From Shigella phage JK23: 64,000 bases of DNA. Below the pieces are notes generated by a model. That model was not told where the DNA came from and searched no databases. It saw nothing but the letters and a program-made list of their open reading frames with translations. Below are positions 15,841 through 20,611 of this stretch, piece after piece (the first letter of the stretch is position 1; each line of letters opens with the position of its first letter). The translations under genes and the position numbers were made by a program. The stretch is taken from the sequence record MK962752; one strand, given 5' to 3'.

Positions 15841-15870
15841 GGGGACCGAAAGGTCCCCATATTTTTATTT
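15841..15870 (+). terminator. rho-independent terminator after gene 54
   Basis: ggggacc-gaaa-ggtcccc hairpin followed by atatttttattt. Confidence 0.75.
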
Positions 15871-16155
15871 ACGGAATGAAATGAAAGCAGAAACTGAAGC
15901 AACTAAACTGTCTTCAATATAAACTTCAATTTTTACCGGAGCTTCTGACTCAAATTTACCTGTTACTACACCTTGGAAAATGCTTTCAGTCTGTTCTGGT
16001 TTTGAAAAATTTTCAGAAGGAAAAATTCCGAACTTTTTATCTGTTCCAAAAATTTTAATAAATTCATCGTAAACTGCTTCATTAAAAGCATTATCAGCAG
16101 GAATAACGCCTTCAACGACGAGCTCTTGGCCTAAAAAGCGTAAAGAAGATTTCAT
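15865..16155 (-). CDS. hypothetical protein (T4 alt.-3 position)
   Basis: 96-aa ATG ORF downstream of an early promoter. Confidence 0.6.
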   Translation of the reverse strand: MKSSLRFLGQELVVEGVIPADNAFNEAVYDEFIKIFGTDKKFGIFPSENFSKPEQTESIFQGVVTGKFESEAPVKIEVYIEDSLVASVSAFISFRK

Positions 16156-16162
16156 TTTGTGT

Positions 16163-16216
16163 TCCTCATGTTATGTCAGTAAGACTACTATAACACAACA
16201 CGAGGGACTTGTAAAC
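16163..16216 (-). promoter_or_regulatory. T4-type early promoter (54-bp element, copy A)
   Basis: Minus strand: GTTTAC, 18-nt spacer, TATAGT; identical 54-bp element recurs at 32133-32186. Confidence 0.65.
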
Positions 16217-18273
16217 TACATTTTGAACTTTTTAGACATTCCGTTGATGTTAACCAAAGAAGCTAATATTTGAGAAACTTCGTTTTCCTCTTCTTTTGAT
16301 TCTTCTACAAGGAATTGATTAAATCCAGCCATTGGACGAACTTCACCAGTTTCCATTAAATGGTCGCCATCATATACTGATTCTTCTAATTGGTCAGAAG
16401 GAGGAACGATTGTACCTTCGATTAGATACTTGTTATAAGCAGTTTCTTTCATAAAGTACGTACTTACTTTATTAATCTTTAGTAAAATTCCGCGCGGTAG
16501 AATAACTTCAGCTTCTGATGGAAATCCTGATAAATGACCCGGAACGATAACTTTGATTCGCTCAGCTCCTTTAATTACCATACCCACGCTAGTTTCAGCA
16601 TCTTCATTAGCATATGTAGAATGACTACCCATATGCATCAAATCTTCTGCATCAACAGAACCTTCTCCTTCGCCAGAAAATACTGCACCGGAATCATCTA
16701 GAGCCATATAGTTTTTACCATGCTCACCGAAGATATTTGGTTTAAGCGATGTCGATACGAAGTTCTTGAAATAGAACATTTTGTTTTCAATGTTATGACG
16801 CAAAGTTTTAAAGGTAACTTCTTGTCCACGATAAAGCGTAGTTCCTGGAGGAAGAACTGAACCTTTAGCGAATGCAGAATCCAACGTCTCAATGTGCTTA
16901 ATAGCTCGTTCCATATATTCTTCACGGGTAGAATCTGGTTTACCCAAAAGGAACGAGTTCATTTCAACATATGAATCTGCACAATAATCTTCAATTACAT
17001 CAGACTCAGCCTGAGTCAGTCCTTTTGGAGTTACTTCAGTGCTTGCGTATTCATATGCCTGAGCAGCAGATTCATTAATCAATTTATAAATGCCATTCAT
17101 GACAAATTGAATAATAGCTGTCTTTTCATCTGGCGTAGCTTTAGAACCTTTAACCAAATCATTGATAATTTTCTTAATAACATCAAAGCTATTAGAAATA
17201 TTAATATCAGCAAGATCGCTTAAAATTTTATCAGTTTTATAATCAAAGAATTCTTTATTCTTTAAATATTCTTGAGAACCTTGATATGTTATATCGCTCT
17301 GCAACTTGATAGATGGATCACGTAAACGTGCATGGGCCAATGCAATATGATTTCGGAAGTTTTCTAGTTCATAATCGCTAGATTTAAAACGAGAAGCACT
17401 TCTCATACCACCGATAGCTCCTTTGCCGAAGTTTGAACCAATCTGGATAACGCCAGAGTTCATCGGACCTTCTGCTTTATATACCGGAACTTTAGATTCA
17501 AACTCTTGATATTTCTTGGCAGCGAAGCCATCACCCTGAAGTGAAGCATCGACAGTAGAATATTGAGCTTGTGCTGCTAATCGACGACTAATTTTAGTTT
17601 TTTGAATAACAGCTTGATCCGTGCGCTTATCATTTTCTAAAGCAATAGAAGCAGCAACAGCGACAGCTTTAGGAACAGCATTACCTGTTTTAACATCTAC
17701 ATAAACATCACCGACCTTTGATTCAACTTTTGTGAATAACTCGGTTGAAATAGGAGGTACACCTGGAATGTCTTCTAAATTGGCATTTTTACGGTAAACC
17801 ATAATATATGCGTACTTTTTATCATAGTCCCAGATTTCCTTTAAAAGAACATATCGACCTGCTCCTTTAGTACGTACTAAACGGTCAGCAATAACTTGCA
17901 TTTGACGAGCTGCGCCATTTGTTTTACTTTTTAGTACGCGGAATAGACATGCGTCGATTTTATACTGTTTCATTGTTTGAAGAGCAGTATCAAAAACGGC
18001 ATTAATGACACCAATTGGATTTCCACCCAAGTTTTTAAGCTTAACTAATGATAGTTTCTCATTAACACCTATCATTACGATATGCATCATTTTATCGCCT
18101 GGTTTAACGTTTTTATTCGTATCACCACCAGAGGTGTATGTACAAAATCTAAATCCAGGAAGCACGCTTTCTTCGCCGGCTTGAATAGCAAAAATTTGTG
18201 GTATTTTATGCTTAGGATTTAAGTTAACAACCGGCGCCGAAGCGCCGTCAAATAATTCTGTAATAAGTTCCAT
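16216..18273 (-). CDS. Alt-like ADP-ribosyltransferase paralog, packaged internal head protein
   Basis: 685 aa; N-terminal MELITELFD capsid-targeting-like sequence; ART R-S-E pattern (YRGQ ... FVSTSL ... EAEVILPRG). Confidence 0.8.
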   Translation of the reverse strand: MELITELFDGASAPVVNLNPKHKIPQIFAIQAGEESVLPGFRFCTYTSGGDTNKNVKPGDKMMHIVMIGVNEKLSLVKLKNLGGNPIGVINAVFDTALQTMKQYKIDACLFRVLKSKTNGAARQMQVIADRLVRTKGAGRYVLLKEIWDYDKKYAYIMVYRKNANLEDIPGVPPISTELFTKVESKVGDVYVDVKTGNAVPKAVAVAASIALENDKRTDQAVIQKTKISRRLAAQAQYSTVDASLQGDGFAAKKYQEFESKVPVYKAEGPMNSGVIQIGSNFGKGAIGGMRSASRFKSSDYELENFRNHIALAHARLRDPSIKLQSDITYQGSQEYLKNKEFFDYKTDKILSDLADINISNSFDVIKKIINDLVKGSKATPDEKTAIIQFVMNGIYKLINESAAQAYEYASTEVTPKGLTQAESDVIEDYCADSYVEMNSFLLGKPDSTREEYMERAIKHIETLDSAFAKGSVLPPGTTLYRGQEVTFKTLRHNIENKMFYFKNFVSTSLKPNIFGEHGKNYMALDDSGAVFSGEGEGSVDAEDLMHMGSHSTYANEDAETSVGMVIKGAERIKVIVPGHLSGFPSEAEVILPRGILLKINKVSTYFMKETAYNKYLIEGTIVPPSDQLEESVYDGDHLMETGEVRPMAGFNQFLVEESKEEENEVSQILASLVNINGMSKKFKM

Positions 18274-18276
18274 GAT

Positions 18277-20373
18277 TTATCCTTGAACGAACTTGTAAGG
18301 CATGTTTGTAATATCTATGCAAGACGCAATAATTCCAAGAGATGATTCTACTTTCTGTTTAACATTTGATGAAACAAATGATGCAAAGTCAACTCTGTCT
18401 TCTACTTCAATATCACCTGTCATTGCAACTACTTCGCCGGTTTCCATTAGATGGTCACCGTCATAAATTACCGATTCGGTGAGTTCTTCTGTGGTCATAA
18501 CTTCAGCTTGAATAAGTTTTGTATTATTAGATGTTGTTCCGTCATTATTAGAAGCATCAGTTATTTTATTAACTTTAACCATCAATCCGCGCGGTAGAAT
18601 AACTTCAGCTTCTGTTGCTATTCCGAGACTTCCTGGATATACAACATTAACTTTATGAGCTCCATCAATTGCCCATCCTATTTGAACTTTAACGTATTCA
18701 GGATTTTCTTTATACGCTCTTATTTCGTTTGGATTAATAGTTATTCCTTCTTCATTTTTATCAACTGTTAATTCATTGCGAGCTTCTGGTTCTAAAAGAC
18801 CAATACCAGCATGTGTAATTCCAAAACGTCCAAAAATGATAGGAGTTAAAGAAGTAGATACAAAATTTCTGAAATAGAACACTTTATTTTTAACTAGTGC
18901 TTCGTATATAGGAGCAGTCATACTTTGAGCACGATAAACTGTAATGCCTTCTGGTATACGGTCACCATTTTCAAAAGCTGAATCTAAATTATTTATAGCA
19001 GATTCAATTTCTTTTTCACTCATTATATCATATCGTTCTGGATTGTAACGACCTAAAAGAAGATTATTGATGTCTGTATATCCTGAACCACAATACTCTC
19101 TAATGCCGCGCTTTTGTGATGGAGTATATTTAGAACCATCACGGGCAATAGTAATATCAATCATTGGACCTGCACCAATTCCGGAAAAGCTATAAATCAT
19201 TCGTTTGAGGAATTTAGTTTTTGCTGCATTCCAGGCATTTTTAGTTATTTCTCCCCAGACTTCATCTGGCTGCCCTTTACGAGTTTTATTATGTTTATCA
19301 AGCCAATTATCTTTATATTCTTCAAATAATTGATTAACAGCTGCTGCGTATTTCTCTAAACATTTTATTGAAGTAGTTGGTTCATTTTTAATCGCATTAA
19401 GAATTACATCTTTAATTTTTTCTGAAACTTCACCGACTTGACTCATTGGAAAGAATTTATAATCATAGTGAAGTTCATCTGCCGTTCCTTCAGCAATAAT
19501 TTTTGCTGCCTTAGTTTTAGAAGCTAATGAATTAATTCCAAGCTTCATTTCTTCTGCTTCGGGAATTAAAGGTGCAGTAGCAGGTTTATTGAAATTAGCT
19601 GCGGTAGATTCATACTTCTGGAATAATTCACTTTCAAATCTAGAAGATTCCAATGACTGACTTTGTGCAATTGCTCTACGGGAAATTTTAACTTTAACGA
19701 TTACGGCTTGGTCAGAACGTTTATCGTTTTCTTGTGCAATAGATGCAGCAATTGCCTCATTTTTGGTTACTTGAGCTCCAGTATCTTTATTAATATAAAC
19801 ATCACCGACCTTCGATTCAACTTTAGTAAAGAGCTCGGTACTAATTTCCGGAACTCCTGGAATGTCTTCTAGTGATACATTTTTGCGATGTATAAGAATA
19901 TATGCATACTTTTTATCATAATCCCAGAGTTCCTTAAGAAGGACGTATCTGCCACCTGAACGACTACGGATAAGTCTATCAGCAATAACTTGAATTTGTC
20001 GAGCTTGGCCAGCAGTTTTAGACTTAAGAATACGAAGCATACAAGCATCAATTTTATACTGACGCATTGTTTGCATTGCAACAGTAAAAACTGAATTGAT
20101 ATAATTAATTGGGCTTGGACCAAGACCTTTTAATTTAGCAATTGAACCTTTAGCAGTTAATGTAAAAGGAACAATATGCATCATTTTATCGCCCATTTTT
20201 AAATCACGATTAGTATCACCTCCAGATGTATAGGTACATAAACGAAAGCCTGGTTGTTCAATTGCATCATCAACATGAACTGAAAAAATTTGTGGTATTT
20301 TCTTCTTTGGATTTAAGTTTGTAATCGGAAGAGTAGTATCTTCGTCAAATAATTCTGTAATGAGTTCCATCAT
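18277..20373 (-). CDS. alt: Alt ADP-ribosyltransferase (internal head protein)
   Basis: 698 aa; N-terminal MMELITELFDEDTTLPITNLNPKKKIPQIF; ART motifs YRAQ ... FVSTSL ... EAEVILPRG; adjacent to gene 30 as in T4. Confidence 0.85.
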   Translation of the reverse strand: MMELITELFDEDTTLPITNLNPKKKIPQIFSVHVDDAIEQPGFRLCTYTSGGDTNRDLKMGDKMMHIVPFTLTAKGSIAKLKGLGPSPINYINSVFTVAMQTMRQYKIDACMLRILKSKTAGQARQIQVIADRLIRSRSGGRYVLLKELWDYDKKYAYILIHRKNVSLEDIPGVPEISTELFTKVESKVGDVYINKDTGAQVTKNEAIAASIAQENDKRSDQAVIVKVKISRRAIAQSQSLESSRFESELFQKYESTAANFNKPATAPLIPEAEEMKLGINSLASKTKAAKIIAEGTADELHYDYKFFPMSQVGEVSEKIKDVILNAIKNEPTTSIKCLEKYAAAVNQLFEEYKDNWLDKHNKTRKGQPDEVWGEITKNAWNAAKTKFLKRMIYSFSGIGAGPMIDITIARDGSKYTPSQKRGIREYCGSGYTDINNLLLGRYNPERYDIMSEKEIESAINNLDSAFENGDRIPEGITVYRAQSMTAPIYEALVKNKVFYFRNFVSTSLTPIIFGRFGITHAGIGLLEPEARNELTVDKNEEGITINPNEIRAYKENPEYVKVQIGWAIDGAHKVNVVYPGSLGIATEAEVILPRGLMVKVNKITDASNNDGTTSNNTKLIQAEVMTTEELTESVIYDGDHLMETGEVVAMTGDIEVEDRVDFASFVSSNVKQKVESSLGIIASCIDITNMPYKFVQG

Positions 20374-20422
20374 ATCCTCTCTAGTGTTTATTCTATTTAT
20401 AAAATTAAAGGCCCGAAGGCCT

Positions 20423-20611
20423 TTAATAATCTATTGGTAAGAGAGTACGATATATTTCAAACTTTGGACCTTTTTCATAGGCATCAAAAGTTTCTGTGAA
20501 TTTATTATAAGCATATGCATCTATAAATTCAATCATGATTTGTGATACAGAAGTAGAAACATCTCCACCTTCTTTTTGAGCCACGACAATTGTTTCTAAG
20601 TAAGCTTTCAT
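20423..20611 (-). CDS. hypothetical small protein
   Basis: 62-aa ATG ORF; start overlaps gene 30 stop (ATGA). Confidence 0.55.
   Translation of the reverse strand: MKAYLETIVVAQKEGGDVSTSVSQIMIEFIDAYAYNKFTETFDAYEKGPKFEIYRTLLPIDY

Follow-up and report, generated by a model that had tools for sequence, protein, structure and literature searches.

A tandem pair of Alt-type ADP-ribosyltransferase genes in Shigella phage JK23: an old duplication whose second copy is probably functional

Why would a phage carry, side by side, two genes for what looks like the same enzyme? In Shigella phage JK23 (sequence record MK962752), of which a stretch of 64,000 nucleotides (the window) was analyzed here, two adjacent minus-strand genes encode large proteins resembling Alt, the ADP-ribosyltransferase (ART) that phage T4 packages and injects. 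The question is whether the second gene is a working enzyme with its own task, a spare copy, or a relic. A first-pass annotation of the sequence had proposed two intact Alt-type ARTs in tandem, and this is borne out: the open reading frames (ORFs) of 698 aa (18277..20373, minus strand) and 685 aa (16216..18273, minus strand) keep the coordinates given there, and both products match PF03496 and PHROG 802. Taken as a whole, the locus is probably best explained by an old tandem duplication of alt in which both copies are functional, packaged, injected, and directed at partly different host targets. The upstream gene, which is the orthologue of T4 alt, is called AltA in what follows, and the downstream gene AltB.

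18277..20370, minus strand: AltA, 697 aa, orthologue of T4 alt; N-terminal domain, residues 1-240; variable helical region, 241-415; ART core, about 416-632, with R480, S505/S507, and E587/E589; gp21 cleavage predicted after E6 and E632; 65-aa C-terminal propeptide.
16216..18273, minus strand: AltB, 685 aa; N-terminal domain, residues 1-238; helical region, 239-415; ART core, 416-631, with R482, S507/S509, and E587/E589; gp21 cleavage predicted after E6 and E631; 54-aa C-terminal propeptide.

The larger ORF opens with two ATG codons and reads MMELITELFD. Phage REP2 lacks the first of these, and the RefSeq homologues begin at the second, so the conserved AltA start is placed at 20370, giving 697 aa. 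The claim that both proteins start with MELITELFD is therefore right when they are counted from the conserved start, but not for the 698-aa ORF as first read. On the minus strand, the gene order is DNA ligase (gene 30), alt.1, AltA, AltB, and alt.-3, followed by a bidirectional terminator, beyond which genes 54 and 48 lie in convergent orientation. Over 4.9 kb spanning the locus, identity is 98.6% with Shigella phage CM8 and 97-98% with T2, T6, and RB32, and the window locus is that of a Tequatrovirus of the T2/T6/RB32 type.

AltA and AltB align over their full length with 41% identity (BLASTP, E 1e-157), far past chance, and pairwise alignment with T4 Alt gives 70% identity for AltA and 41% for AltB. 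Against a gathering cut-off of 23.4 bits, the PF03496 (ADPrib_exo_Tox) scores are 129.3 bits for AltA and 71.8 bits for AltB, and the PHROG 802 (Alt family) profile matches both proteins end to end (E 2.6e-273 and 1.5e-256, respectively). PF26846 (Tevenvirinae_ADPRT) is listed in precomputed annotation for homologues that are 93-98% identical. The pair also sits in the expected genomic position, between gene 30/alt.1 and alt.-3/gene 54. The catalytic motifs are YRAQ (479-482), VSTSL (504-508), and EAEVILPRG (587-595) in AltA, giving the triad R480, S505-T506-S507, and E587-A-E589; in AltB they are YRGQ (481-484), VSTSL (506-510), and EAEVILPRG (587-595), giving R482, S507-T508-S509, and E587-A-E589. 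The R-S-E pattern had been read in both copies from the start, and loss of catalytic residues in the second was looked for by alignment without any being found: R482, S507, E587, and E589 of AltB, as well as the subsequent PRG, do not vary among 54 aligned, diverse members of the family, which came from a search through 1.84 billion representative proteins. In R-S-E ARTs of the C3/VIP2 group, the E-x-E arrangement goes with arginine specificity. In T4 Alt, mutation of the catalytic glutamate abolishes activity (PMC11404850). At every level of sequence and predicted fold that can be tested, AltA and AltB both read as members of the Alt family.

The resemblance between the two copies is very uneven. 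Identity is 68% over residues 1-238, falls to 17% over 239-415, recovers to 43% over the first half of the ART core (416-512), drops to 15% in an insert at 513-563, and then stands at 39% over 564-631 and 44% in the C-terminal tail. A conserved N-terminal part of about 200 aa had been predicted, and residues 1-238 correspond to it. The accompanying statement that the C-terminal halves differ markedly holds for residues ~239-415 and 513-563, but the catalytic core is conserved, as is the propeptide motif YDGDHLMETGEV. Divergence is strongest in the central helical region, in the insert that separates the STS motif from the last strands, and in the residues just before ExE, which read ...HLSGFPSEAE in AltB, ...SLGIATEAE in AltA, and ...SLAPSNEME in T4 Alt. 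In C3-like toxins, the turn equivalent to these last residues contributes to substrate recognition.

AltB was the paralogue chosen for modeling, with the 54-sequence alignment as the AlphaFold2 input. The model has a mean predicted local distance difference test score (pLDDT) of 81.6 and a predicted template modeling score (pTM) of 0.74, and the core ART strands exceed a pLDDT of 90. Its alpha/beta N-domain (~10-215) is followed by a long helical region (~230-470) and then by the ART domain. Confidence is low in residues 1-8 and 630-636, which hold the two predicted cleavage sites, and in 518-554 and 643-659. The two conserved domains lie as follows.

16381..17028, minus strand: AltB ART catalytic domain (aa 416-631), from PF03496 (aa 416-620), AlphaFold, and Foldseek.
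17560..18255, minus strand: AltB conserved N-terminal alpha/beta domain (aa 7-238); the Pfam entry for proteins of this type is PF26846.

When the AltB ART domain is searched against the PDB with Foldseek, it retrieves Vis, Certhrax, C3bot, CDTa, and VIP2 (E 2e-7 to 1e-4, probability 1.00, TM-score to target ~0.6), and its predicted fold is that of the C3/VIP2-like ARTs. These R-S-E toxins (C3bot, Vis, Certhrax, CDTa, iota Ia, and VIP2) have the catalytic fold and the Arg, Ser-Thr-Ser, and Glu-x-Glu elements in common with the Alt pair. However, they are only 13-20% identical to it, and they have neither the Tevenvirinae N-domain nor the long helical region nor propeptides cleaved by gp21; their route of delivery is secretion or binary-toxin pores, not a phage head. 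A sequence search of the PDB found no solved Alt protein structure: AltB had no match, and AltA had only marginal ones, to CDTa and iota toxin.

The N-domain of AltB is 68% identical to that of AltA even though synonymous sites are saturated, and it is modeled with a pLDDT of 87.6. Its structural matches point weakly though consistently to a GNAT-like fold, without sequence support. Synonymous differences between AltA and AltB are saturated along the whole length of the genes, N-domain included (proportion of synonymous differences, pS, 0.5-0.7). Recent gene conversion was considered as the cause of the similar N-termini and was rejected for this reason, so it is selection that has conserved the N-domain. 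We propose that this domain is the core-association and packaging module of AltB. The further idea of a general delivery module fused to other cargo was dropped after the few distant proteins that matched in the N-domain only had been inspected: one has an ART domain by Pfam (P0291), two have ART-like motifs by eye (P0262 and P0288), and one is unassignable (P0279).

How T4 Alt is processed is known from mass spectrometry: gp21 cuts at ITE-6 and LTE-619, removing 6 N-terminal and 63 C-terminal residues and leaving 68.2 kDa (PMC5694885, PMC9026906). Applying this trimming to the T4 sequence gives 68.2 kDa, equal to the published mass. Both window proteins have the N-terminal site by motif match (MELITE|LFD), which agrees with the (L/I)xE leader noticed in the first-pass annotation, and both have a C-terminal LxE site, LTE-632 in AltA and LEE-631 in AltB. 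At least 90% of the 54 family members have the cleavage glutamates E6 and E631, and the predicted mature AltB (residues 7-631) has a mass of 69.1 kDa. Both cleavage sites presumably lie in exposed stretches, to judge from the model. The C-terminal site is followed in both paralogues by SV(I)YDGDHLMETGEV, inside an acidic propeptide (pI 4.2-4.6). The propeptides, at 16216-16380 for AltB and 18277-18474 for AltA, start with S-V-x-Y-D-G-D-x-L-x-E-T-G-E, which is kept across the family, and end in a conserved (M/I)PxKF. Such conservation of a piece that would be discarded suggests a role in binding the core or in holding the enzyme inactive in the producer cell. All of the sequence features fit an AltB that is packaged and processed like Alt.

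The signals around the two genes suggest how they might be expressed.

20394..20401, minus strand: TATAAATA, a late promoter motif of the T4 type; the AltA start codon lies 23 nt downstream.
20408..20423, minus strand: terminator-like hairpin AAGGCC-TTCG-GGCCTT followed by a T-rich run, read from the sequence; it overlaps the first base after the alt.1 stop codon.
16187..16215, minus strand: match to an early-type sigma-70 promoter, (G)TTTACA-17 nt-TATAGT, directly after the AltB stop.

The TATAAATA motif has the same sequence and position in T4, T2, RB32, G50, REP2, ime09, Ac3, fPS-65, and SP1, and its match to the T4 late-promoter consensus suggests promoter activity. Just upstream, the hairpin would separate the early transcription unit from alt in a terminator-like manner. 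It is not listed by a simple terminator scan of the window, and in phages fPS-65 and G50 the annotation places a terminator at the homologous site. No promoter of AltB's own was found at the locus. A second TATAAATA within AltA (18990-18997, minus strand, ~720 nt upstream of AltB) was considered as a late promoter for AltB, and was rejected because it falls within conserved AINN codons, is absent in G50 and fPS-65, and corresponds to the one match expected by chance. The AltB start codon lies 3 nt past the AltA stop, with AAGGA 6 nt upstream of it, and this junction is identical in all of the Tequatrovirus loci examined. After AltB, the early-type promoter match would drive alt.-3 and mark the end of the late alt unit; the homologous site in fPS-65 is annotated as a predicted early promoter.

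A model of the pathway can be proposed on the pattern of T4 Alt. The TATAAATA upstream of AltA most likely drives joint late transcription of AltA and AltB. Because AltB starts 3 nt after the AltA stop, its translation is probably coupled to that of AltA. Both precursors, we infer, join the prohead core via their shared N-terminal part, and cleavage by gp21, following Glu6 and the LxE near residue 631/632 as in T4 Alt, would then yield mature proteins of ~69-70 kDa. The mature AltA and AltB would be ejected into the new host together with the DNA. There, each would function as an NAD-dependent, arginine-specific (ExE-type) mono-ADP-ribosyltransferase. Since the helical region, the post-STS insert, and the pre-ExE residues are so different, the host substrates of the two enzymes are probably in part distinct. 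NAD-dependent ADP-ribosylation is known for T4 Alt only, with host substrates that include the RNA polymerase alpha subunit (PMC11404850, PMC9026906).

The tandem arrangement itself is not new, contrary to what the first-pass annotation implied: it is already known, is routinely annotated in hundreds of genomes, and is the normal state of the genus. The AltB-specific DNA, which is the segment that T4 lacks, is present in 401 phage records at 94-98% identity (T2, T6, RB32, and others), and most of Tequatrovirus has the tandem pair. In T2, T6, RB32, ime09, G50, and others, both genes go under the RefSeq name “Alt-like RNA polymerase ADP-ribosyltransferase”, and duplications of alt in T4-like phages (44RR, RB49) were described in 2006 (PMC1524935). 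The AltB orthologues, which are RB32 alt.-2 (YP_803136), T2 T2_202 (YP_010073850), and the second gene of T6, ime09, G50, and others, all have 685 aa and 97-99% protein identity to AltB; they are found at the same position, with the same AltA junction, and show no difference of substance. The AltB group is very uniform, its largest cluster at 90% identity holding 772 sequences.

Beyond the genus, tblastn finds relatives of Alt in 1,221 phage records, and the Alt copies of other Straboviridae are 28-48% identical to the window pair. Dhakavirus IME341 has a tandem pair of 694 and 707 aa, adjoining gp54 and with the same 3-nt spacing as here; Aeromonas phages 31.2 and 44RR (Biquartavirus) have a pair of 639 and 642 aa, also adjoining gp54; Krischvirus GEC-3S/RB49, at the same position by gp54, has a 683-aa protein along with a short ART of 274 aa; and Mosigvirus has a single alt copy. 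In a neighbor-joining tree, AltB groups with the downstream Dhakavirus copy, and AltA falls together with the upstream copy of that genus and with the Mosigvirus gene. The grouping of AltB implies that the duplication predates the Tequatrovirus/Dhakavirus split. The two Aeromonas copies cluster together, which means that their duplication was independent or that the copies have been homogenized.

T4 itself departs from this pattern. T4 Alt (NP_049811, 682 aa), the packaged and injected mono-ADP-ribosyltransferase, has AltA as its positional orthologue, between alt.1/gene 30 and alt.-3/gene 54, and the two have in common the late-promoter motif, the ITE-6 and LTE motifs, and the R-S-E triad. 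They are 100% identical over residues 1-240 and 95% over the last 65 aa, in contrast to 33% over 241-415 and 45% over 516-585, so AltA carries a different allelic cassette from that of T4 Alt. AltB has the whole architecture in common with T4 Alt and is a separate paralogue that T4 lacks. At the AltB position, T4 is annotated with small ORFs, as the first-pass annotation had said: alt.-1 (NP_049810, 61 aa) is 95% identical to AltB residues 1-56, and alt.-2 (NP_049809, 67 aa) is 98% identical to residues 62-116. According to a note in the T4 record itself, they are the beginning of alt, duplicated long ago. When the DNA is compared, T4 turns out to lack the segment equivalent to window positions 16236..17925, which is bordered by a short repeat.

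17926..17934, minus strand: 9-bp direct repeat CTAAAAAGT, upstream copy; T4 deletion breakpoint on the 5' side of the gene.
16227..16235, minus strand: 9-bp direct repeat CTAAAAAGT, downstream copy, 11 nt before the AltB end.

To judge from these borders, T4 lost AltB by a clean microhomology deletion of ~1.69 kb between the CTAAAAAGT repeats. By this deletion, codon 116 was fused to the final codons of the gene in another reading frame, hence the unusual C-terminus of T4 alt.-2; an additional break separates alt.-1 from alt.-2. The same type of junction is found in 91 phage records. T4 alt.-1 and alt.-2 are thus remnants of AltB, and T4 is a natural AltB-null phage. Since T4 and the related records have lost it, AltB must be dispensable in laboratory hosts.

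Could AltB in JK23 then be a decaying duplicate or pseudogene, like alt.-1 and alt.-2? The remnants kept by T4 and ~91 related records speak for this, yet the state of the gene elsewhere does not. The AltB ORF is intact, at 685 aa, in all eight of the Tequatroviruses compared (the window and seven others), the catalytic triad is kept, and at least 80% of the AltB-specific DNA is covered in the 401 phage records, at 94-98% DNA identity. Across the same eight phages, the ratio of nonsynonymous to synonymous substitution rates (dN/dS) is 0.041 for AltB, 0.055 for AltA, 0.043 for gp54 (the baseplate–tail tube initiator), and 0.072 for gp48. AltB is therefore under strong purifying selection, with a constraint like that of the essential tail-tube initiator gene 54. 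These selection and integrity data refute decay, to which we give almost no credence.

A harder case is that of a functional AltB that is redundant with AltA, acting on the same targets (chiefly Arg265 of RNA polymerase alpha, and the other known Alt substrates) and adding dose or robustness. The two proteins do have in common the catalytic core, the arginine-type ExE motif, and the whole N-terminal domain, and T4 manages with one copy. However, the copies parted before Tequatrovirus and Dhakavirus did and have remained apart, their synonymous sites saturated and without a trace of gene conversion; their central regions are only 17% identical and their post-STS inserts 15%; and strong purifying selection on each diverged form is unlike what simple dosage predicts. 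We consider redundancy unlikely on these grounds. It is more doubtful still that AltB is expressed and left unpackaged, acting late in the producer cell, or that it is mainly a structural part of the prohead core with incidental ART activity. In favor of this reading, Alt is described as a core protein besides being an enzyme (PMC11404850). Against this stand the N-domain, both gp21 glutamates, and the acidic C-terminal propeptide motif, all of which AltB keeps along with its packaged paralogue, and the gene appears to be co-transcribed and translationally coupled with that of a known head protein.

Several points count against an old duplication with two packaged, injected, and partly diverged enzymes. 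The divergence of targets is plausible, and it is argued solely from divergence outside the catalytic core, while the presence of AltB in virions, its cleavage, and its enzymatic activity are inferred from sequence. The searchable literature yielded no virion proteomics for AltB, and a literature search on the function of the second copy found no paper, only the note on alt duplication of 2006 (PMC1524935). That the MELITE hexapeptide is a capsid-targeting signal is an assumption carried over by analogy from the internal proteins; for T4 Alt, removal of the peptide is what has been documented (PMC5694885). Finally, T4 grows well without AltB, so the contribution of AltB may be small or host-specific. 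The old duplication with two functional, injected copies remains our preferred explanation. Its more specific form, in which AltB is a second injected ART with host targets of its own (e.g., transcription or translation factors, toxins, or defense proteins), is put forward tentatively, as a possibility with rather less than an even chance.

The function of AltB has apparently not been studied, because the model phage, T4, has lost the gene. T4 is atypical here, and the work on phage ADP-ribosylation and RNAylation, and on bacterial defenses that detect or oppose them, has almost all been done in it, that is, without AltB. If AltB does have host targets of its own, most natural T-even phages would deliver two different ARTs at infection and have four in all with ModA and ModB, not the textbook three, and the loss of AltB could be one reason why T4 differs from T2/T6 in how it takes over the host or in how sensitive it is to bacterial defense systems. 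With conservation at the level of a tail-tube gene, and with its catalytic and gp21 features all kept, AltB is an easy and well-defined target for study.

The locus also bears marks of exchange. At least two allelic cassettes of AltA circulate (~340 records of the T2 type, the rest of the T4 type or others), and AltB is nearly uniform. T2-type AltA occurs with AltB (the window and T2) and with the deletion (Escherichia phage vB_EcoM_SP1), and T4-type AltA (684 aa) occurs with intact AltB in Yersinia phage fPS-65, and the T4 type with the deletion in T4. The AltA allele and the AltB state are evidently unlinked in these sequences, which points to frequent recombination within the locus. The mosaic structure of AltA may reflect diversifying or balancing selection on that gene. 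One metagenomic protein (P0004; Logan assembly DRR277896, L014 4001-6061) is a 686-aa hybrid, identical to AltA from residue 1 to ~105 and to AltB from there on, and encoded directly after alt.1 on a contig that ends 29 nt past the gene. Either the tandem paralogues underwent an unequal crossover, leaving one hybrid gene, or the hybrid arose in assembly as an artefact.

The genes on either side of the pair are small.

20423..20611, minus strand: alt.1, 62 aa, Pfam Phage_blade; upstream neighbor, with DNA ligase (gene 30) further upstream.
15865..16155, minus strand: alt.-3, 96 aa, DUF5498; downstream neighbor, not an ART.

Between the ligase gene and AltA, alt.1 matches Pfam PF24647, “Phage blade protein”, with an E-value of 7.5e-29. 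In T4, C-terminal extensions of Alt.-3 are the sole mutations recovered that escape the CmdTAC defense system (PMC11618068).

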